A stretch of DNA of 38,559 nucleotides from Patescibacteria group bacterium (GTDB lineage: Bacteria; Patescibacteriota; Minisyncoccia; Phycocordibacterales; JANLHH01), in contig JANLHH010000054.1 of assembly GCA_024654605.1 (NCBI GenBank), positions 1 to 38,559 on the forward strand. The letters are read 5' to 3'. Numbering within the stretch: position 1 is the first letter of the stretch; the number at the start of each line of letters is the position of its first letter. The position numbers and the translations under genes are program-made. Positions 1-26,226 of this stretch are shown here, piece by piece. Under the pieces are notes generated by a model. It was not told where the DNA came from. It worked only from the letters and a program-made list of their open reading frames with translations, and searched no databases.

Positions 1-55
1 AACCCACAACCCCTTGGTCCGAAGCCAAGTACTCTATCCATTGAGCTACGGGCGC
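1..55 (-). tRNA. tRNA-Arg (anticodon UCG), 5' part only; the 3' end lies beyond the window edge
   Basis: The reverse complement reads GCGCCCG-TA-GCTC-AATGGATA-GAGT-A-CTTGG-CTTCGGA-CCAAG-GGGTT-GTGGGTT. This gives an acceptor stem, D arm, anticodon stem-loop with U33 and TCG at 34-36, and the start of the T arm. Confidence 0.85.
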
Positions 56-14725: not shown

Positions 14726-15718
14726 ATGCACCATTATTTGCCGAGCAAAAAATTACTACTCATGATACTCTCCGTCGTATTGGTGGGAGGGGGGGTGTTT
14801 TGGGTAGCGAGCATTGGAAAGAACAAGTCTCAAAATTCTTCGTTCGCTAGAGAATCAGTAAAGGTTACCGACCTTGCTCTGTCCTATACTGAACAAGATA
14901 TTGATGGGGATGGACTTAAAGATTGGGAAGAATCACTCTGGGGGACCGATGTGAAAAATCCCGATACTGATGGGGATGGAACGTCTGACGGCGATGAAGT
15001 GGCGGCAAAAAGGGATCCGAATATTGCGGGACCAGATGATGTGTATGTGGAACAAGATATTCAAACAAAAACAGAGGGTCAAGTAACGTCAACCGAAGAC
15101 TTGTCACAAACAGCGCTTTTGGCACGAGAGTATTTCGCAACCATTATAAACCTCAAAGAAAGCGGGAATTTCAACGCAGAGACAGTGTCTCAACTTTCAG
15201 AATCACTCGTTCAAAATTTCGCGGGAGAAAACAGTATCGGTGCAAAGCGGAGCAAATCGGACCTATTTCTTACGGAAGACAATAGCACCGAATCTCTCCG
15301 TACGTACGGCAACACAATGGGTACTATTGTAAAAAAATACGCGGGATACAATTTGCCGAACGAACTCGTGGTAGTAGCCGACGCGCTTGAGACGCAAGAC
15401 GAGAGTAAGTTAAAGAAACTTGATCGCAGTATAGAGGTCCACAAAGCTCTCATTGCGGAGTTTACTGCCGTTCGTGTTCCTTTGGATGCCGCAAATATTC
15501 ACCTCGCGCTCATCAACACCTATATTGCAACCGAACAATCAATTGAACAAATGAATACCATGTTTGCGGATCCTCTCGTGGGAATGCTCGGCATAAACTC
15601 CTATACCACACACACCGAATCGTTGGACAAAATATTTGCTGACTTAAGATCGTATTTCCCCTCCCGAGGCGTTTTCTTTGAAAAGAAAGAGTCGGGATAC
15701 GTATTCGCCGCAAGATAA
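14726..15718 (+). CDS. Membrane-anchored protein with thrombospondin-type-3-like Ca-binding repeats
   Basis: N-terminal TM helix (LLLMILSVVLVGGGVFWV). It is followed by DIDGDGLKDWEE..NPDTDGDGTSDGDE (DxDxDG repeats), with the rest helical and of unknown family. Confidence 0.7.
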   Translation: MHHYLPSKKLLLMILSVVLVGGGVFWVASIGKNKSQNSSFARESVKVTDLALSYTEQDIDGDGLKDWEESLWGTDVKNPDTDGDGTSDGDEVAAKRDPNIAGPDDVYVEQDIQTKTEGQVTSTEDLSQTALLAREYFATIINLKESGNFNAETVSQLSESLVQNFAGENSIGAKRSKSDLFLTEDNSTESLRTYGNTMGTIVKKYAGYNLPNELVVVADALETQDESKLKKLDRSIEVHKALIAEFTAVRVPLDAANIHLALINTYIATEQSIEQMNTMFADPLVGMLGINSYTTHTESLDKIFADLRSYFPSRGVFFEKKESGYVFAAR

Positions 15719-15723
15719 ACACT

Positions 15724-17259
15724 ATGCATTTTTTTAAACCACACAGTATTATAGCCATACTTCTCTTAGTTTCATTCCTCGGAGCTCCTCTTTTTTTCTT
15801 AAAACCTCCTCCCACGCATGCTGCCAGTTTTTGTGGAGTTAATATCAATATAGGTGGATCATCAAGCGGTATAGGGGGATCGGGAAATGATGAAGTTCCC
15901 GTGAAAGAGAAGGAACAGAGGAGTAAAGAATCCTTAGGGGATTGCCTCGTTAGCATAGCGGCAAAAATAGCGGCAAAAATACTCACCCAATCAATCCTTG
16001 ATTGGATAAATTCCGGTTTCAAAGGACAACCAACATTTGTGCAAGATCCGAAAAAGTTTCTTGGCGATGTCGCCAATGAAGTATCGGGAGCATTCATCGC
16101 CGAAGTCGGACTCTCCGCGCTCTGTACTCCGTTTAGGCCGCAAATACAAATCGCTTTATATGGTATCCAAACATACTACCAAAGATCACAATGTACTCTA
16201 GGAGATGTGGTTGACAATCTGCAATCATTTTACGACGACTTCAACGCCGGCGGATGGACAGCGTGGATTAGTACGGTTCAACAACCACAGAACAACCCCT
16301 ATGGAGCCTACTTTATAAGTCTTCAGGAGCAACAGTTGCGTATATTGGAAGCAAAACAAAATGCCCGCGATGACGCCAGTCAGTCGGGAGGATTTCTTAG
16401 TATCTATGAATGCAGCCGCATGGACCCTTTTTATGGCGATCCGGATTTTCCTAATTACGAAACTCCCTACCATGAGGGCGGCATAAAAGGTTGTGAAAGT
16501 GCATCAAAAACAACTCCCGGTAGAACTATTGCGGGGCAAGCAGACTTTGCTTTAAGTATTGGTGGTAGGCAACTCATTGAAGCAGATGAATTAAATGAGA
16601 TGATCGGCGTAATAGCTGATGCGTTTATCAGCCAACTTATTAAACAAGGATTAAGTAGCTTGAATGAACGTGATAATCCGGATCTTTTTGAAGATCCTTC
16701 TATCGCAATCAAAGCTCAGTTAGAAGCGGATCTAGCTGACGCCATTGCAGCTACGGAGGCATATCTTGCCGCACTCACGAGTGGGCGCGATACATTGGAA
16801 GAACTGATACTACTTGCCGACGACAGAATTGCATGTTGGACCGCTGTTGATGCTTACGGGGCTACTCAAGAACCACCGATTGAGCCTCAGTACACCGCTA
16901 CAATCGCAGAAATCCAGGCACGAAAAGTGGAACTCTTAACACTCCTTGAAGAGAGTCCGGCCACCCCCGAGGAGGTCGCCTATGCGACTGATTTATTGGA
17001 CGACTTGCAAAGCACGGACCCGGAGAAAGACCCTCCGAGCATTCGCAGATTGCTTGACTTGGGGGATATCATTACCGCTCTCACTGAATTTGGGAAATTG
17101 GCGGGAGGAATACCTTCGCAAGAAATGATAGACGCCGTGGCGGCACAATCGGGGAACTACGAGGGAGAACTTATTGCCGCAAACACGGATCTCTTGGAAT
17201 GCCAAGAGCTACCTGGAGGAACGCCGACCGCAACAAGCACTCCTCCAATCACGCCTTAA
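15724..17259 (+). CDS. Secreted or anchored 511-aa protein, unknown family
   Basis: N-terminal hydrophobic signal or anchor (IIAILLLVSFLGAPLFFL..THAAS). It has 8 Cys, a Gly/Ser tract, a helical acidic C-terminal half and a Pro/Thr tail. It starts 6 nt after the preceding ORF. Confidence 0.7.
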   Translation: MHFFKPHSIIAILLLVSFLGAPLFFLKPPPTHAASFCGVNINIGGSSSGIGGSGNDEVPVKEKEQRSKESLGDCLVSIAAKIAAKILTQSILDWINSGFKGQPTFVQDPKKFLGDVANEVSGAFIAEVGLSALCTPFRPQIQIALYGIQTYYQRSQCTLGDVVDNLQSFYDDFNAGGWTAWISTVQQPQNNPYGAYFISLQEQQLRILEAKQNARDDASQSGGFLSIYECSRMDPFYGDPDFPNYETPYHEGGIKGCESASKTTPGRTIAGQADFALSIGGRQLIEADELNEMIGVIADAFISQLIKQGLSSLNERDNPDLFEDPSIAIKAQLEADLADAIAATEAYLAALTSGRDTLEELILLADDRIACWTAVDAYGATQEPPIEPQYTATIAEIQARKVELLTLLEESPATPEEVAYATDLLDDLQSTDPEKDPPSIRRLLDLGDIITALTEFGKLAGGIPSQEMIDAVAAQSGNYEGELIAANTDLLECQELPGGTPTATSTPPITP

Positions 17260-17413: not shown

Positions 17414-17422
17414 TGTTATAAT
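17414..17422 (+). promoter_or_regulatory. Extended -10 element (TGTTATAAT) for the VirB6-like operon
   Basis: TGnTATAAT lies 41 nt upstream of the start at 17464. The palindrome AGTGGTtcACCACT (17426-17439) follows immediately. Confidence 0.5.
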
Positions 17423-17463: not shown

Positions 17464-19542
17464 GTGCGAAGGCGTGAAGCGCAAAAAAACATATATGCAA
17501 AAAAAGTAAGCTCTCTTGCTCCTTTTGTCGCTGGACTTCTCATCAGTATCGCTCTTCTCTCGCCGATATCTTTCAGTATTAAACCTTCTCAAGAGAGCGC
17601 GGCCATCGTTGCAATCTCACTCCAGAGCGCTTTGGCTCAAGAGGATGATGACGAAGTTGCTCCGGTTGACGAAAGTAGGGAAATTTCATCAAACCCTTTC
17701 TATGAGGGTTTCTGTTCTTTGAATTCTCCCTCTACATGGTTTCAAGGATGTATCGCGGCGGGATTCTATGAGATCATCTATACCCCATCGGCGCTTCTTC
17801 TTGCGGGAGGAGGATGGCTATTTGATGTCATGTTGGCATTTTCATTAAGCAGTACGGTACTTGATGCGGACTTTGCGCGAAACGGGTGGGCAATCACGCG
17901 AGATCTTGCAAATATGCTTTTTATTTTTATCCTTTTAGCAATCGCTATCGCCACAATACTCCAAATTTCCAGTTATGGCGCAAAGAGTCTGCTTGCGCGG
18001 CTTGTCATTGTGGCACTTCTCCTGAACTTTAGTTTGTTCATTACGAGAGTCGTAGTGGATGTTTCCAATGTTACCGCGCGATTATTCTACGACAGTATTT
18101 CATCGGCAAACACAACCGCAAACGTCGCAAGCGGAGCAAACGCTTTGACTGCTTCGAGCTATCTCAAAGCCGGTTTTGACGTTCCCCCGAAAGATATCTC
18201 AGCGGGACTTGTGGGGGCATTTAATCCCCAGCAGTTGCTCGGCATAGAGAGTTTCAGCACATGGGTCAAAAGCGGCAAAGGTTTAGGTGAATTGTTTTTT
18301 ATCTATCTTTTTGCAACAACCCTTAATATCATGACGGCATGGATCTTTGTTTCTATCGCCCTACTTTTTATTACCCGTGTTGCGGTAATCTGGTTTTTGA
18401 TGGCTGTCGCACCCCTTGCGTTCATCGCAACAATCCTTCCTAACACAAAATCATTGGCAAGCAAATGGTGGGGCGAATTATTCAGTAAATCGTTCTCTAT
18501 TGCGGTTTTTCTTTTCTTTCTGTGGATCATCGCGGCGCTTACCAGCAGCAGCTTCCTTAAAAATACTTTTAATACCAGCGTTTCTGCCGATGGCGGTCTT
18601 CTGCAGTTTGTTGTTATTGTCGGGCTTCAGTTTGGAGTTTTAATTGTTATGCTTATGATGGCAAAGAAGGTTACGATGAGTATGGCGGGTTCCATCGGCG
18701 GCGTATCGCTTAATATCGGCAACAAACTGGCTGGTGGCGCCTTGGGATTGTTGGCTGGCGGTGTAGGCGGGCGATTGGCGCGAGGAGTCATCGGAAGAGG
18801 CGGCGCCATGATGGCCGGCAGTGAGGGGCTTCGCAACGCGGAGCAGAAGGGTGGGGCAACCGGGTGGGCCGCCCGACGAATGCTCCTTGCGGGCGATGCG
18901 GTCAGCAAGAAAAGTTTTGACATACGCAATGTACCGGCTGTACAAAAAGCCATGGGGTCTATCGACGCAGGCTTAGGGAAAGGTGGTGGTAAAGGAGGTT
19001 ACGAGGCAATACTCAAGGCTCAGGTGAAAAAGAAAGAAGGTATTGGTAAATTCCTCGGTGGCGCGCGTGAGACACGCGACGAGAGCGCGCAAACACAAGC
19101 GGCACAGGGACGATTAGGGGCCGCTACGCTCGCATTGTCTGAAGCGAAAGCGAGAGAGACAGCTGCGAGAAGTGAGAAAGAAATTGCATCCGCTAGAAAC
19201 TTGGTTGCTCTTGCGGAAAGCAGAGTAAAAGAGGAACAAGAGACCATAAACTCAATAAAAAAAGGTGTAGATCAAAGATCTTTGGATAGAAAAACGGGAT
19301 ACATAAATAGACTGCAAACCAAAGGAGACAGTGTCTTAAGTACTCTTAAGAGAAGTGTGGGCCGCGCACCGGCACAGAAAGACAGACAAGCCGCACTGGC
19401 GTTAAGAAAAGGGAAGAAAACAGTAAAACAACTCGTGGACGAGGCGTTAGAAACATCAGGAGAAACTAAAAAAGAAAAACCGAAAGAGGAAGAGGGTGGA
19501 CAAAAAGGGTCGGGGGAAATAAAAAACAGATTTACCACGTAG
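17464..19542 (+). CDS. VirB6/TrbL-like polytopic membrane protein with a Gly-rich segment and a long charged C-terminal tail
   Basis: 692 aa with about 8 hydrophobic helices. A Gly-rich stretch (GGALGLLAGGVGGRLARGVIGRGGAMMAG), typical of TrbL/VirB6 C-termini, is followed by about 230 aa of Lys/Glu/Ala-rich helix. It occupies the prgH-like position upstream of the PrgI-like and VirB4 genes. The GTG start is not firmly supported. Confidence 0.7.
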   Translation: MRRREAQKNIYAKKVSSLAPFVAGLLISIALLSPISFSIKPSQESAAIVAISLQSALAQEDDDEVAPVDESREISSNPFYEGFCSLNSPSTWFQGCIAAGFYEIIYTPSALLLAGGGWLFDVMLAFSLSSTVLDADFARNGWAITRDLANMLFIFILLAIAIATILQISSYGAKSLLARLVIVALLLNFSLFITRVVVDVSNVTARLFYDSISSANTTANVASGANALTASSYLKAGFDVPPKDISAGLVGAFNPQQLLGIESFSTWVKSGKGLGELFFIYLFATTLNIMTAWIFVSIALLFITRVAVIWFLMAVAPLAFIATILPNTKSLASKWWGELFSKSFSIAVFLFFLWIIAALTSSSFLKNTFNTSVSADGGLLQFVVIVGLQFGVLIVMLMMAKKVTMSMAGSIGGVSLNIGNKLAGGALGLLAGGVGGRLARGVIGRGGAMMAGSEGLRNAEQKGGATGWAARRMLLAGDAVSKKSFDIRNVPAVQKAMGSIDAGLGKGGGKGGYEAILKAQVKKKEGIGKFLGGARETRDESAQTQAAQGRLGAATLALSEAKARETAARSEKEIASARNLVALAESRVKEEQETINSIKKGVDQRSLDRKTGYINRLQTKGDSVLSTLKRSVGRAPAQKDRQAALALRKGKKTVKQLVDEALETSGETKKEKPKEEEGGQKGSGEIKNRFTT

Positions 19543-19584: not shown

Positions 19585-20379
19585 ATGGAAAATGACAAAG
19601 AACAACTTCTTGAACAATTCAAAAAACTACCTAAGGATCTTCAAGACGCCATAACGTCTAATGATATTGACGTTGCCATGCAGGAGATATCCAAAAAAAG
19701 TCACCTGCATATTGACCAGGCGGGAGAACTTGCCGATGAGGTAGGACTCGTACTGCTTGGCGTGGTGCATCCGGACGACTTCTTGGAAGATGTGGTGTTC
19801 AGGCTCAAGATTGACAAAAAAGCGGCTGGGGAAATCGTTGCTGATGTCAACGAGCATGTCTTTAAAAAAGTACGGGAATCTCTCATGAAAGTGCATCGCA
19901 TAGATAGTATGGTGCCGGGCGGCTTTAATGATTGGAGCGGGGCGGAGGTAGTGGCATCCGGAGACACAAAAGAGATACTCCCAAGCAAAGAAGAAATGCT
20001 CAAAGAGATTGAACAGGAAGTGGATGCGCCAACACCAAGTCCTCTGCGTGAAGAAAAAACAGATACCGCTCTCGGGGCTGTCGTGACACCACTCCCAGTA
20101 AATCATACGGGGAAGCTAAAAGAGAACGCTTTAGAACCAATGGATGCCACGCCGACAGTAAGCCCATTGGACGAGCAGAAAAAGAAAGTAGAAATGGGTG
20201 AAGGAGCAGCCTTAGATCCTTCATTTAACGAGGCTCGAAGCTTGGAAAAAGATGTTGTCAAACAAAAACTGGAAAAATCTTTCTCCATACCGCGAGCAGA
20301 AACTGAACATAAAGACACATCGCAAACACGTGCCGGAACTTATAAAGAAACAGACCCATATCGTGAGCCGTTAGAATAA
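19585..20379 (+). CDS. Acidic cytoplasmic hypothetical protein (264 aa)
   Basis: It has no TM segment, a helical N-terminal region of about 100 aa and an acidic, probably disordered C-terminal half. It is tightly packed between the VirB6-like and PrgI-like genes. Confidence 0.65.
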   Translation: MENDKEQLLEQFKKLPKDLQDAITSNDIDVAMQEISKKSHLHIDQAGELADEVGLVLLGVVHPDDFLEDVVFRLKIDKKAAGEIVADVNEHVFKKVRESLMKVHRIDSMVPGGFNDWSGAEVVASGDTKEILPSKEEMLKEIEQEVDAPTPSPLREEKTDTALGAVVTPLPVNHTGKLKENALEPMDATPTVSPLDEQKKKVEMGEGAALDPSFNEARSLEKDVVKQKLEKSFSIPRAETEHKDTSQTRAGTYKETDPYREPLE

Positions 20380-20844: not shown

Positions 20845-20853
20845 TGCTATAAT
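20845..20853 (+). promoter_or_regulatory. Extended -10 element (TGCTATAAT), an internal promoter of the T4SS-like cluster
   Basis: A perfect TGnTATAAT lies 38 nt before the ATG at 20892. TTCGTAA direct repeats (20861-20883) follow it. Confidence 0.5.
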
Positions 20854-20891
20854 TAATACGTTCGTAAGAAATTCGTAATTCGTTTTATTGT

Positions 20892-21530
20892 ATGGCGGCA
20901 AGCACAAAATCAGCACAAGACTTCGTTCCCATCAAAGAAGTGCGCAACGGAGTAATTATCCTCAAGGACGGGTCTATGCGAATCATCCTCATGGCGTCTT
21001 CTTTGAATCTTGCGCTTAAATCAAGTGACGAGCAGATGGCCATCACTCTGCAATTTCAAAGTTTTTTAAATTCACTTGATTTTTCCATTCAGATATTCAT
21101 CCAATCGCGCCGATACGATATCAGGCCATATATCGCATTGCTTGAGGATCGGGAACACAATCAGCTCAACGACCTCCTTAAAATACAAACGCGAGAATAC
21201 ATAAATTTCATCAAGAGCTTTACGGAAGCGACCAACATCATGACAAAAAACTTTTTTATTGTGGTTCCGTATACTCCATCCGGGATCGGTTCGCCACAAG
21301 GAGGAATTGGTGGTTTTTTACCGGGAGCAAAAGGCAAGAGGAGTAGTGCGCAAAAACTTGAGGATTTTGAAACTCACCACTCCCAGTTGAAACAAAGATC
21401 CTATGTTGTACAACAAGGGCTTAATAGGACAGGGGTTCGCGTGGTGCAACTCGGCACCGAGGAAGATATTGAACTCTTTTACAGGATGTTTAATCCGGGA
21501 GAGCTTGAGAAACCAATCCAGCTCTCGTAA
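20892..21530 (+). CDS. Stand-alone protein resembling the N-terminal domain of Gram-positive VirB4 (PrgJ-like)
   Basis: FVPIKEVRNGVIILKDGSMRIILMASSLNLALKSSDEQMAITLQFQSFLNSLDFSIQIFIQSR...FFIVVPY...ELFYRMFNP follows, from memory, the pattern at the start of long (about 800 aa) Firmicute VirB4 proteins. It has no NTPase motifs. Confidence 0.55.
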   Translation: MAASTKSAQDFVPIKEVRNGVIILKDGSMRIILMASSLNLALKSSDEQMAITLQFQSFLNSLDFSIQIFIQSRRYDIRPYIALLEDREHNQLNDLLKIQTREYINFIKSFTEATNIMTKNFFIVVPYTPSGIGSPQGGIGGFLPGAKGKRSSAQKLEDFETHHSQLKQRSYVVQQGLNRTGVRVVQLGTEEDIELFYRMFNPGELEKPIQLS

Positions 21531-21552
21531 TACATAACTTTTAATCAGAAAT

Positions 21553-23385
21553 ATGTCCTTCATAGACACTCTATTCGGAAAAAATAAAAAAGAACAGGAG
21601 GTAACTCCTATTCTCCCTCAAGAGATCTATGAGTCTGCGGTGTTGGAGCTCAAGGATGTCATCGCACCTTCCGCGCTCAAGATCACTCCCCGGGAGTTTA
21701 ACTTGGGAGACAAAATGGCACGCACCTTTTTTGTCATTTCATATCCGCGCTTCCTTTCCGATAGTTGGTTTTCTCCCATTATCAATCTTGATCGCGTATT
21801 TGATGTTTCCATATTCATCCATCCGGTAGATACGGCGCGTGTACTCAGGCAATTTCAGACAAAAGTAGCCGAAGTCCAAAGCCAGATATCCATGCGGGAA
21901 GAAAAAGGGCTGGTACGCGACCCGATGCTAGACACCGCTTATAGCGACTTAGAGGACCTCCGCAACAAGCTCCAACAAGCCCAGGAGCGACTCTTTGATG
22001 TAGGGCTCTATATCACCATCTATGCGGATGATCTCACTGAACTTGATCGGACAGAGTCGGAAATAAAATCCATTCTGGAGGCGAAACTCGTGTATTTGAA
22101 ACCGGCGCTTTTCCAGCAAGAAGAAGGCTATAAGAGCGTCATTCCTATCGGGACTGATCTCTTGAACGTGCACTCAAAATTAAATTCATCTCCTCTTTCC
22201 AGTCTTTTTCCATTCGTCTCGTTTGACCTCACTTCAGACAAGGGGATCCTCTATGGCATCAACCGGCACAATTCAAGCTTGGTGCTCTTTGATAGGTTTA
22301 GCCTTGAAAACTATAATTCGGTTATTTTCGCGAAGGCAGGTTCAGGAAAATCCTTTTCAACAAAATTGGAGATCTTGCGAACACTCATGTTTGATACCGA
22401 CGTAATTGTCATTGATCCCGAGCGGGAATATGAGTATCTGGCGGAAGCGACAGGGGGGCGCTACTTCAACATCTCCCTCACCTCAAAGCATCACATCAAT
22501 CCGTTCGACCTTCCTGTTCCGCGCGAAGACGAGTCTCCTGCTGATGTGCTGCGTTCAAACATCATCACGTTGGTTGGTTTGTTTAGGATCATGCTTGGAG
22601 GACTCTCTCCGGAAGAAGACTCCATTATGGATAGAGCTATTGCCGAGACCTACGCACTGAAAGATATTACTCCGGAATCTGATTTTGCGAGCATCGCGCC
22701 GCCCCTTATGTCTGATTTTGAACTGGTGCTCGCCGGCATGGAAGGAGGGGAGTCGCTCTTACAGAGACTTTCCAAATACACCAAAGGCACGTGGTCAGGA
22801 TTCATCAATAATCCCACCAATGTGGATATCAATAAAAAATTCGTAGTCTTTTCGGTACGAGACATGGAAGACGAGTTGAAGCCCGCCGCGATGTATATCG
22901 TCATGCACTTTATCTGGAACTCGGTGAGAAAGAACTTGAAAAAACGCCTCTTGGTGATTGATGAGGCGTGGTGGATGATGAAGTCGGAGGACACGGCGTC
23001 ATTCTTGTTCGGTCTTGCTAAGCGTGGAAGAAAATATTACTTGGGGCTCGCAACGATCACTCAAGATGTAGGCGATTTTCTCAAGTCTCCTTACGGACTC
23101 CCTATCATCACCAACTCCTCAATTCAGATTCTTTTAAAACAGTCACCCACATCCATTGATCTGGTACAGCAGACATTCAACCTCACTGATGAAGAGAAGT
23201 TTCTGCTTCTTGAATCTGATGTCGGGGAAGGAATCTTCTTTGCCGGTCTCAAGCATGTGGCTATTAAGATACTGGCATCTTATACCGAAGAGCAGATCAT
23301 CACCTCTGACCCGTCTCAAGTATTGATGATCAAAAAAGCAAAGCAGGATCTCAAGGACGCACGAGGAGCCGAGTCTGATACATAA
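21553..23385 (+). CDS. virB4: VirB4/TrbE-family T4SS ATPase
   Basis: 610 aa. The N-terminal region DVIAPSAL...ARTFFVISYPRFLSDSWFSPII is typical of Gram-positive VirB4. Walker A is FAKAGSGKSFS and Walker B is LLVIDEAWWMM, with a later ATITQD motif. Confidence 0.88.
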   Translation: MSFIDTLFGKNKKEQEVTPILPQEIYESAVLELKDVIAPSALKITPREFNLGDKMARTFFVISYPRFLSDSWFSPIINLDRVFDVSIFIHPVDTARVLRQFQTKVAEVQSQISMREEKGLVRDPMLDTAYSDLEDLRNKLQQAQERLFDVGLYITIYADDLTELDRTESEIKSILEAKLVYLKPALFQQEEGYKSVIPIGTDLLNVHSKLNSSPLSSLFPFVSFDLTSDKGILYGINRHNSSLVLFDRFSLENYNSVIFAKAGSGKSFSTKLEILRTLMFDTDVIVIDPEREYEYLAEATGGRYFNISLTSKHHINPFDLPVPREDESPADVLRSNIITLVGLFRIMLGGLSPEEDSIMDRAIAETYALKDITPESDFASIAPPLMSDFELVLAGMEGGESLLQRLSKYTKGTWSGFINNPTNVDINKKFVVFSVRDMEDELKPAAMYIVMHFIWNSVRKNLKKRLLVIDEAWWMMKSEDTASFLFGLAKRGRKYYLGLATITQDVGDFLKSPYGLPIITNSSIQILLKQSPTSIDLVQQTFNLTDEEKFLLLESDVGEGIFFAGLKHVAIKILASYTEEQIITSDPSQVLMIKKAKQDLKDARGAESDT

Positions 23386-23484
23386 AAGAGGTTACTTGTA
23401 CGGGGTAGATAAGAACTACTGTTTTAGATATAATGAAATTAATCTTTGTTCATCAAACAAAACTCCGAGGGACGTATTAAGACC

Positions 23485-24516
23485 ATGCCAAATAAGAGAA
23501 TCATAAAAATTCTTCTATCAGTAATACTATGCGGCGCTTTTACTATCCCTGCCCTTGCACAAGTTACTCCTGGAGAGAGACTTGGCATACAAGCATCTCC
23601 CGAAACTCCCGGTGCTTTTGAGCAAGTGACACTGCAGCTTTCCGGTTACGGTATTGATATAGACAGATTACACACCTCTTGGTATGTAAACGATAAACTG
23701 GAACTTGCCGGGATCGGTAAGAAAAAATTCTCTTTCACCACCAAAGGGGTGGGGTCTCCCTCCACCGTCCGTGTCCTTGTTCGCTCGGGGACTGCGGGGG
23801 TTATTAGCAAAACTTTAGTATTTTCACCAGCAGAGGTTGACCTGCTCTGGGAAGCGATTGATTCTTACACTCCTCCATTCTACAGAGGAAAAGCACTGGC
23901 GACCCCGCAAGCAACCATATCGGTTACCGCTATACCAAACATGACTGCCCCTGGCAAAAGCCCATTAGGAATAAAAGATGTCGTGTACAAATGGAAAAGA
24001 AACTTCAGTTATGCCGATTTCTATGATCAATCGGGTTACGGCAACAACTACGTTTTCTTCAAGAAAGACCCTCTCAAAAAAACCGACACCATAACTGTTG
24101 AAGCTTCCTCGTTTGATGGAACACTAAAGACGGTGAAAAATATAGACCTCCCGAGTTATGACCCAAAAGTCATTCTCTATGAGCATCGCCCGTTGGAAGG
24201 AATTCTCTATGAACACGCCGTGGGTGATACCTTTACCATGCAAAATAAAGAGGTACTTATATCGGCGGAGCCTTATTTCTTTTCTGTAAAAGACAAAGAC
24301 AGCAGTAATATTTCTTACGCGTGGCTGCTTGATAATAAACAGGTGGCCGATACGGAAAGTGATAAAAAGAGTGAGTTGGCACTCCGTACCGAGGGAGGAA
24401 GCGGACAGGCAAGGGTATCGCTTCGTGTCACGCATGTTACAAAAATTCTCCAGTTTCTTGAACAGTCATTCACCATAAACTTCGGGGAAACAAGTGGTAC
24501 CTCTTTTGGTTTTTAA
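23485..24516 (+). CDS. Secreted hypothetical protein (343 aa)
   Basis: It has a classic signal peptide (MPNKRIIKILLSVILCGAFTIPALAQV) and a beta-rich mature part with no recognised family. I prefer the ATG at 23485 over the track's TTG at 23446. Confidence 0.7.
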   Translation: MPNKRIIKILLSVILCGAFTIPALAQVTPGERLGIQASPETPGAFEQVTLQLSGYGIDIDRLHTSWYVNDKLELAGIGKKKFSFTTKGVGSPSTVRVLVRSGTAGVISKTLVFSPAEVDLLWEAIDSYTPPFYRGKALATPQATISVTAIPNMTAPGKSPLGIKDVVYKWKRNFSYADFYDQSGYGNNYVFFKKDPLKKTDTITVEASSFDGTLKTVKNIDLPSYDPKVILYEHRPLEGILYEHAVGDTFTMQNKEVLISAEPYFFSVKDKDSSNISYAWLLDNKQVADTESDKKSELALRTEGGSGQARVSLRVTHVTKILQFLEQSFTINFGETSGTSFGF

Positions 24517-24975: not shown

Positions 24976-26226
24976 ATGTCAAAAAAAATCATTATCATCA
25001 TTATTTCAATACTTACGCTCATTGTGGCGATTGTTTTGGGTATGACACTTTTTAAAGACGGTGAAAGTGGTAGTGATGTTACCAAAACATTTGATAATTT
25101 TATGCCGTTTGGTATCCCTGAAGAGGATGGTGATACTGCTTTTCCCGACAACACCAAAGAAGACACCGACCTCTCTCAGGAAGAAGAGGTAGCGACACTC
25201 CCCGTATTACGACAACTCTCTAGTAGCCCCACCGCAGGCGCTATCGCCATACAGAAAACCATTGAGAGCGATGAGGGGCAAAAAGAGGTGCTCGTAGCCC
25301 GCTACATGGAACGCACCACAGGGCATGTGTATGAAACAACGGTGGAAACACTCAAAAATACACGCATCACAAACACGACTATTCCTAAAGTATATGAGGC
25401 ATTGTGGGGGGACAAAGGGGAGTCGGTGATTATTCGCTATATTAATGAGAATACCAACGCGATAGAGAGCTTCTCCGCCCGCATAATGAAACAAGAAGAG
25501 GGTGTGAGTGAGGGAACCCTTGAAGGCGTGTTTATGCAGAGTGGGATCAAAGAAATAGCCCTTTCTCCGACCAAGGGAACCATATTTTATCTTACACCGG
25601 GAGGAGACGGTACCATTGGTATCAGGTCAAAAATTGACGGGACTGACAAAGTGCAAATATTTGATTTTCCATTTACGGAGTGGCTGGCGCAATGGGCAAC
25701 GAACAAGAACATTTTTCTTACTTCTAAGGCATCAAATAATGTTTCCGGGTTTCTCTACACACTCAGCACGGCGGGTGGTCCTTTAAAAAAAGTATTGGGC
25801 AACATTTCCGGCCTCACTACGCTCTCAAACGGATTAGGAACGAAGGTTTTATACTCGGAGTCTACTGTGAACGGCTTGTCGGTGGGTGTAATAGATGTAA
25901 CCAGTGGTGAATCAAAAAAGCTCGGTATCACCACCCTGCCGGAGAAATGCATCTGGGCAAGTGATAATGTAACCATTTATTGCGGAGTACCGGAGGCTCT
26001 GCCTCAAGGACAGTATCCCGATATATGGTATCAGGGATTGACTTCGTTTACCGATACGATATGGAAGGTAAATACTGAGACAGCGTATTCCGAGGTTTTG
26101 TTAAAACCAACAGAGTCTCTCAATATACATCTTGATATTATCAAACTATTCCTTGATGAAGATGAGAATTACCTTTTCTTTACAGACAAAAAAGATTACT
26201 CTCTTTGGACACTGAAGATTAAATAA
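24976..26226 (+). CDS. Membrane-anchored hypothetical protein with a large beta-rich ectodomain
   Basis: An N-terminal TM helix (KKIIIIIISILTLIVAIVLGMTLF) and an acidic linker precede about 330 aa of repetitive beta-like sequence. A propeller-like fold is suspected but not demonstrated. Confidence 0.7.
   Translation: MSKKIIIIIISILTLIVAIVLGMTLFKDGESGSDVTKTFDNFMPFGIPEEDGDTAFPDNTKEDTDLSQEEEVATLPVLRQLSSSPTAGAIAIQKTIESDEGQKEVLVARYMERTTGHVYETTVETLKNTRITNTTIPKVYEALWGDKGESVIIRYINENTNAIESFSARIMKQEEGVSEGTLEGVFMQSGIKEIALSPTKGTIFYLTPGGDGTIGIRSKIDGTDKVQIFDFPFTEWLAQWATNKNIFLTSKASNNVSGFLYTLSTAGGPLKKVLGNISGLTTLSNGLGTKVLYSESTVNGLSVGVIDVTSGESKKLGITTLPEKCIWASDNVTIYCGVPEALPQGQYPDIWYQGLTSFTDTIWKVNTETAYSEVLLKPTESLNIHLDIIKLFLDEDENYLFFTDKKDYSLWTLKIK

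Follow-up and report, generated by a model that had tools for sequence, protein, structure and literature searches.

A VirB4 encoded by two adjacent genes in a chromosomal type IV secretion locus of Patescibacteria

The VirB4 of a type IV secretion system (T4SS) in a Patescibacteria group bacterium is divided between two neighboring genes. The genes lie on contig JANLHH010000054.1 of assembly GCA_024654605.1, analyzed here over positions 1 to 38,559 of the forward strand (the window). Two open reading frames (ORFs), both on the forward strand and both starting with ATG, encode proteins of 212 and 610 amino acids (aa) in different reading frames. It is very probable that together they encode one functional VirB4 of a chromosomal, origin-proximal T4SS of Paceibacteria (Candidatus Yonathbacteria-like). 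An initial annotation, made from the sequence alone, had described a 212-aa ORF lacking nucleoside triphosphatase (NTPase) motifs that lies 22 nucleotides (nt) from a 610-aa ORF in another frame, and direct reading of the coordinates, spacer, and motifs bears this out. The two-gene VirB4 is genuine, ordinary for Patescibacteria, and already known: the literature, Pfam, and NCBIfam already cover the family of the small protein, how abundant it is in the phylum, and how it relates to the VirB4 N-terminus. The complementarity of the two parts, a break point common with plasmid pSK41, and a fused form in Colwellbacteria add a little to this picture without amounting to a new finding.

Homology links the 212-aa protein to the extreme N-terminus of full-length VirB4. 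It is predicted to be soluble and devoid of NTPase motifs; reading of its sequence revealed neither a Walker A motif nor a transmembrane-like segment. Three NCBIfam models match it: VirB4_plasma, which describes VirB4 of Mycoplasma integrative and conjugative elements (ICEs), at profile positions 102-233 of 894 (E 1.5e-8); conju_CD1110, at positions 2-117 of 752 (E 4.8e-4); and TrsD/TraD (NF041427), at positions 12-142 of 201 (E 2e-4, 21.3 bits, with a curated cut-off of 200). Among roughly 8000 homologues scored, the best 120 are 205-242 aa long and all come from Patescibacteria; precomputed database annotation places PF26593 (TraC-like) on every one of these listed proteins, including one that is 99% identical (P0001). 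A local Pfam scan of the 212-aa protein gave no match because PF26593 is newer than the local copy. The ORF also shows the traits of TrsD/TraD, namely a length of about 200-230 aa, the absence of an NTPase motif, and a place after a VirB3-like gene and before a VirB4 that is short at its N-terminus, an order also present in pSK41 and in the related locus L001. The protein most probably belongs to this known TrsD/TraD (Pfam TraC-like) family, and the resemblance to the VirB4 N-terminus that the initial annotation had noted is substantiated by the three NCBIfam matches and by PF26593 on the near-identical protein.

Fold comparison agrees with the profile matches. The AlphaFold2 (AF2) model of the 212-aa protein has a pLDDT of 70, and its 13 best Foldseek matches in the PDB are all TrwK/VirB4 chains of R388 (probability 0.85-0.99, TMq 0.43-0.48). 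PDB sequence searches with the protein and with its profile returned chance matches only, and TrwK was recovered by fold comparison alone.

The 610-aa protein supplies the remainder of the molecule. It scores 380.3 bits on conju_CD1110 (cut-off 325) over profile positions 183-732 and matches VirB4_plasma at positions 270-893. Its residues 229-585 align with the C-terminal domain of Thermoanaerobacter VirB4 (PDB 4AG5, E 3.9e-43), with TrwK residue 446 matching residue 255. These matches define a layout in which the rest of the N-terminal domain occupies approximately residues 29-228 and the ATPase C-terminal domain approximately residues 229-585. The 610-aa chain does not carry a complete N-terminal domain, as it begins at CD1110 position 183 and VirB4_plasma position 270. 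The initial annotation had allowed that the large protein might already hold the region found in the small one; the CD1110 start position speaks against this.

Comparison of the two sets of matches establishes that the proteins are complementary, with no profile position covered by both. The N-terminal domain of TrwK comprises about 400 residues (PMC9259494); here, the large chain carries about 230 residues of this domain and the small chain about 210. The N-terminal region missing from the 610-aa chain is supplied by the 212-aa ORF, so that the two products make up exactly one VirB4. When the sequences are concatenated, they produce a single continuous alignment with TIGR00929 (VirB4_CagE), running from residues 4-766 against profile positions 4-726, and the score rises from 263.8 to 298.9 bits on VirB4_plasma and from 380.3 to 394.5 bits on CD1110.

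Structural modeling of the concatenation gives a similar picture. The 212-aa and 610-aa sequences were modeled with AF2 as a single chain, with naturally fused Colwellbacteria proteins as the alignment. The model has a pLDDT of 73, residues 210-242 at the junction form a low-confidence linker, and the small-protein part is more confident than when modeled alone. Foldseek aligns the model with full-length TrwK/VirB4 over 826 columns and a 799-residue chain (E 3.5e-27, TMq 0.60, TMt 0.61). Confidence is very low near Walker A (residues 437-478, window 22861-22986), where the sequence itself is highly conserved; this probably reflects the limit of a shallow alignment and not biology.

The split is real, old, and conserved, and does not represent a frameshift. 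Related loci were collected from one genome per GTDB species (at least 598 relatives), with 80 loci fetched and two more obtained from another look-up. Both genes are present in 81 of the related Paceibacteria loci; in every one of these, the small gene comes before VirB4 and ends with a stop after 206-232 aa, and 76 have a PrgI-like match upstream. The frame of the VirB4 gene relative to the small gene is spread over all three possibilities (34, 27, and 20 loci). Spacers between the two genes range from -4 nt (an ATGA overlap) to about 500 nt with a median of 5 nt, and roughly four fifths of relatives have spacers of at most 30 nt, including the 4-nt ATGA overlaps. Comparison with orthologous loci, which the initial annotation had proposed as a check, yields a conserved split in Paceibacteria and a fused form in Colwellbacteria.

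Closer relatives of the window retain the same arrangement. The 610-aa protein shares 99% identity with a protein named Candidatus Yonathbacteria, and related sequence is found in groundwater metagenomes. Contigs from four independent groundwater metagenomes, with about 90-95% identity, keep both frames. All indels listed near the junction in these four runs fall within the spacer (21531-21552); one further indel is listed, a loss of 2 nt at 20883, which lies upstream of the first start codon. By our count, third codon positions hold 24 of the 31 substitutions listed inside the 212-aa ORF in related assemblies. Both parts are under purifying selection.

Two further observations concern the junction in relatives. 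In one groundwater run (X8), a minor contig with a depth of 7, compared with about 100, skips 37 nt (window 21515-21551), with only 29 letters on its shorter side. By our arithmetic, codon 208 of the small ORF would then run in frame into the VirB4 ATG, making a fused variant in a related population possible. In the closest GTDB relative, VirB4 (85% identical) does not follow the TrsD-like gene but lies immediately upstream of it and on the other strand, on a 2.8-kb contig (CAZTTV010000081.1; L004:3-1835). An inversion would explain this, as would misassembly of so short a contig.

Fused orthologues provide a natural counterpart to the two-gene form. A family-profile search using one representative per 50%-identity cluster matched 3232 clusters. 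Among the best 150 representatives, 94 are 190-260 aa long, 40 are 261-460 aa long, and one (P0330) has 797 aa. This last protein and more than 110 relatives of 775-807 aa (P0391-P0509), several of them named Candidatus Colwellbacteria, combine PF26593 and VirB4 domains in one polypeptide, establishing the existence of fused orthologues. One such Colwellbacteria gene (L084:7001-9337, GCA_016176525.1) lies on a 645-kb contig at a locus syntenic with the window, in the order KsgA, large membrane protein, 220-aa protein, PrgI, fused VirB4, jag, yidC, rnpA, dnaA, dnaN, and penicillin-binding protein (PBP). The fused proteins are colinear with the 212-aa protein followed by the 610-aa protein; all that they lack is the opening stretch of about 22 residues of the window VirB4, so the junction falls in a linker. 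Identity between fused forms (e.g., P0330 and P0462) and the window is 46% over small-protein residues 1-125 and 51-59% over the VirB4 part. The expectation in the initial annotation that 212 and 610 aa add up to one VirB4 fits well, with a sum of 822 aa set against 775-807 aa in the fused orthologues. An apparent split VirB4 within the fused clade (P0409, 600 aa) proved false, as it results from a 100-N scaffold gap at about 1540-1640 of L085 (CAYJCP010000001.1).

The initial annotation had offered three explanations for the gene pair: a natural fission of VirB4, a frameshifted gene, and an extra paralogous N-domain. A single virB4 that is frameshifted or pseudogenized, or a junction error in sequencing or assembly, would account for two close ORFs in different frames, but its probability is negligible. 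Downstream of the TAA that ends the first ORF (21528-21530), the reading frame of the second ORF contains a further TAA (21535-21537), and a single indel therefore cannot join the two frames. A stop present in all 81 loci across all three frame relations, both frames kept in four metagenomes, purifying selection on both parts, and listed junction indels confined to the spacer also argue against an error; a real artifact looks like the scaffold gap of P0409. An additional copy of the N-domain beside an already complete VirB4 is very improbable. Nothing apart from the ambiguity at the outset favors it. Weak matches of the 610-aa protein to Pfam TraC_F_IV and CagE_TrbE_VirB reflect the part of the N-terminal domain that it has kept; they fall at late positions of this domain (299-352 of 375 and 122-176 of 204, respectively), away from its extreme N-terminus. 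Two overlapping copies are equally hard to reconcile with parts that share no profile position, a concatenation that aligns once along TIGR00929 and TrwK, and a summed length equal to that of the fused orthologues.

The small protein could also be a free-standing T4SS accessory subunit derived from the VirB4 N-terminus. It would then no longer complete the VirB4 fold and would work as an adaptor or regulator with its own dosage, placed between PrgI/VirB3, VirB6, and the ATPase. Such a role would suit a separate gene with a putative promoter of its own in the window, the location of TrsD away from virB4 in Gracilibacteria (PMC12102498), and the 40 representatives of 261-460 aa; the two of these whose sequences were read (P0300 and P0331) consist of the domain followed by a long low-complexity C-terminal tail rich in Pro, Ala, Gln, and Thr, unlike an internal domain. 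It is nevertheless unlikely, because the region absent from the 610-aa core is exactly what the small protein supplies, the fused orthologues are colinear, and short spacers and ATGA overlaps are typical of co-translated partners. Of the three original explanations, natural division of VirB4 is supported by the complementary profile coverage, the single alignment, the match of the AF2 model to TrwK, and the colinear fusions, although the direction implied by the word "fission" is not firmly rooted.

If the two ORFs encode one VirB4, the small and large chains would be made together from adjacent genes, with translational coupling in many relatives. The chains would then associate non-covalently and rebuild a complete N-terminal domain. 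This domain would use the PrgI/VirB3-like protein, whose gene lies just upstream, to dock the ATPase to the membrane, and would also mediate VirB4-VirB4 contacts. In R388, VirB3 is wrapped about VirB4's N-terminal domain, and the VirB4 dimer interface sits wholly within that domain (PMC9259494). The gene order in the window (VirB3-like, N-terminal piece, core) is also the order found in fused polypeptides. Association of the chains, their stoichiometry, and docking to PrgI are what we infer, not what we observe. Several points weigh against a two-chain VirB4. The score of the 212-aa protein on the NCBIfam TrsD model is far below the curated cut-off (21 versus 200 bits), and an hhalign comparison of the family alignment with the single pSK41 TrsD sequence is marginal (E 0.015, 42 columns). 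The structure model of the pair is of an artificial single chain and carries no inter-domain error estimate. The TrsD homologues of Gracilibacteria are reported to lie apart from virB4 (PMC12102498), so tight coupling is not universal. The same study states that no biochemical test of TrsD function has ever been made.

The direction of change is suggestive rather than firmly rooted. In a rough neighbor-joining tree of TrsD domains, the fused forms make up one clade nested among split forms, with an unreliable root; pSK41 TrsD, used as the outgroup, is so distant that its hidden Markov model match does not register. Together with the gene order and VirB4 start position found in pSK41, this topology favors an old split with one re-fusion in Colwellbacteria, and the split may be ancestral for this lineage, with the Colwellbacteria form as a re-fusion. 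A broader proposal, which we regard as rather unlikely, is that the N-terminal subdomain of VirB4 is an autonomous and evolutionarily mobile module, in which a split with one break point predates the divergence of pGO1-type Gram-positive systems and Patescibacteria, was re-fused once in Colwellbacteria, and allows a separate gene, here possibly with its own promoter, to set the ratio of N-subdomain to ATPase core. Under such a scheme, only some VirB4 protomers would be competent for PrgI/VirB3, for example those of a central ring and not the outer protomers seen in R388.

The surrounding genes are consistent with a T4SS of the Patescibacteria type (Table 1). Features described for this MPF-FATA-related clade that are present here include VirB4 with TrsD, PrgI/VirB3, a VirB2-like pilin, a chromosomal location, and proximity to dnaA. 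The 135-aa PrgI-like protein has one strongly hydrophobic segment, and its gene occupies the position of TrsC (135 aa) in pSK41 and of PrgI in three related loci (L001, L002, and L084). This protein probably partners the VirB4 N-terminal domain and anchors it to the membrane. A 692-aa membrane protein is a candidate VirB6/PrgH analogue on the basis of its position and synteny, since 754-780-aa ORFs lacking Pfam matches lie two genes upstream of PrgI in the same three loci; Pfam and NCBIfam scans of the 692-aa protein gave no match. Housekeeping genes around the cluster include jag, yidC, dnaA, dnaN, a class A PBP, KsgA, a UvrD-type helicase, ComM, RuvB, and tyrosyl-tRNA synthetase, with dnaA, dnaN, yidC, and jag at most 8 kb from the T4SS genes.

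Table 1. Features of the split VirB4 locus in the window.
Feature	Coordinates	Strand	Basis or remark
Polytopic membrane protein, 692 aa, candidate VirB6/PrgH analogue	17464-19542	+	Position and synteny only
PrgI/VirB3-like small membrane protein, 135 aa	20388-20795	+	Pfam PrgI PF12666, E 7.3e-10, above cut-off
TGCTATAAT, extended -10-like motif (putative)	20845-20853	+	Exact match, in the 96-nt PrgI-TrsD spacer
TrsD/TraC-like protein, 212 aa	20892-21530	+	NCBIfam; PF26593 on near-identical proteins; AF2 fold match
Intergenic spacer, 22 nt	21531-21552	+	From stop TAA 21528-21530 to ATG 21553
VirB4 core, 610 aa	21553-23385	+	conju_CD1110; Pfam P-loop_TraG, AAA_10, DUF87; PDB 4AG5
Walker A, GSGKS, residues 263-267 of the 610-aa protein	22339-22353	+	Read from translation
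Walker B region, LLVIDE, residues 466-471 of the 610-aa protein	22948-22965	+	Read from translation
VirB2-like T4SS pilin, 156 aa	24494-24964	+	Pfam T4SS_pilin PF18895, E 4.4e-8, above cut-off

ORFs lacking a family assignment flank the T4SS genes at 14726-17259, 19585-20379, 23446-24516, and 24976-26226, one of them with a bacterial TSP3 repeat, and the T4SS genes of two related loci (L001 and L002) are likewise flanked by ORFs of similar size without Pfam matches. These ORFs may be lineage-specific parts or substrates of the T4SS. A tRNA gene is truncated by the window start (1-55, reverse strand; Rfam RF00005, 37.6 bits) and was not called by ARAGORN.

The sequence upstream of the small gene contains a possible internal promoter. 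The motif TGCTATAAT lies 39 nt upstream of the ATG of the 212-aa ORF, and its resemblance to an extended -10 element makes it a putative promoter; a -35/-10 scan did not report this site. Three copies of TGNTATAAT occur in the window compared with 1.3 expected, an excess that is not significant, as at least three copies appear in 15 of 100 shuffles. All three lie just upstream of a correctly oriented gene (2667-2675 on the reverse strand; 17414-17422 and 20845-20853 on the forward strand). For the copy at 2667-2675, the ATG at 2660 is no more than 7 nt away, which would imply an mRNA with no leader or almost none. PrgI and the TrsD-like gene are less than 25 nt apart in most relatives, so that an internal promoter would be a local feature at most.

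Patescibacteria have tiny genomes that keep few large machines; the T4SS is among them, and in the one species tested epibiotic growth requires it (PMC12102498, PMC12857230). In modeling or purifying this system, VirB4 would best be treated as a two-chain enzyme in which a small "hypothetical protein" forms part of the N-terminal docking domain. In current annotation, the small gene is mostly still labeled hypothetical, and the 610-aa gene is labeled "DUF87 domain-containing protein". The natural pair of split (Yonathbacteria-type) and fused (Colwellbacteria-type) forms, along with the TrsD/TrsE break point of pSK41, offers a ready-made experiment on the first ~200 residues of VirB4.

TrsD is the T4SS component most abundantly retrieved from Patescibacteria, with 2,272 homologues, 1,664 of them near virB4 (Quinonero-Coronel et al. 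2025, PMC12102498). The same study reports remote homology of TrsD to the N-terminal portion of VirB4 with no assigned function, its essentiality in S. epibionticum, and a T4SS cluster located near dnaA. A word search of that article found no mention of complementarity, of a break point common with pSK41, or of the fused Colwellbacteria form, and the main text of Guglielmini et al. 2014 (PMC4027160) contains no mention of TrsD. The "TraD" of pELF plasmids (PMC13492992) is a VirD4-type protein and is irrelevant to the TrsD/TraD family discussed here.

The closest parallel outside the phylum is the staphylococcal pSK41/pGO1 system (MPF-FATA, pGO1 subclass), which has the same gene order of TrsC (135 aa), TrsD (227 aa), and TrsE (672 aa). 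The break point is also the same: TrsE and the window VirB4 both start at CD1110 position 183, and TrsE residue 5 aligns with residue 8 of the 610-aa protein. The sequences of pSK41 TrsD and the window small protein are very distant (21 bits against the family cut-off of 200). The two systems also differ in setting, as the plasmid system is conjugative and has a relaxase and coupling protein, whereas the window system is chromosomal, lies next to dnaA, and has a VirB2-like pilin; no relaxase or coupling-protein domain was found among the annotated ORFs of the 38.5-kb window, several of which are without any match.

Full-length VirB4 proteins, such as R388 TrwK, CD1110-family members, Mycoplasma ICE VirB4, and those of the PrgJ/ConE type, have the same fold and domain order as the window chains once these are joined, with the ATPase domain of the window protein homologous to that of PDB 4AG5. 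They are single polypeptides of about 750-900 aa, whereas in the window the first ~200 residues are a separate gene product. The fused TraC-like-VirB4 of Colwellbacteria is orthologous, syntenic, and colinear with the window pair, and differs in being a single ORF of 775-807 aa without the ~22 N-terminal linker residues of the window VirB4. The TrsD homologues of Patescibacteria (PMC12102498; PF26593), which are about 210 aa long and occur phylum-wide beside virB4 and PrgI near the replication origin, most probably belong to the same family as the window protein, and nothing essential sets them apart.

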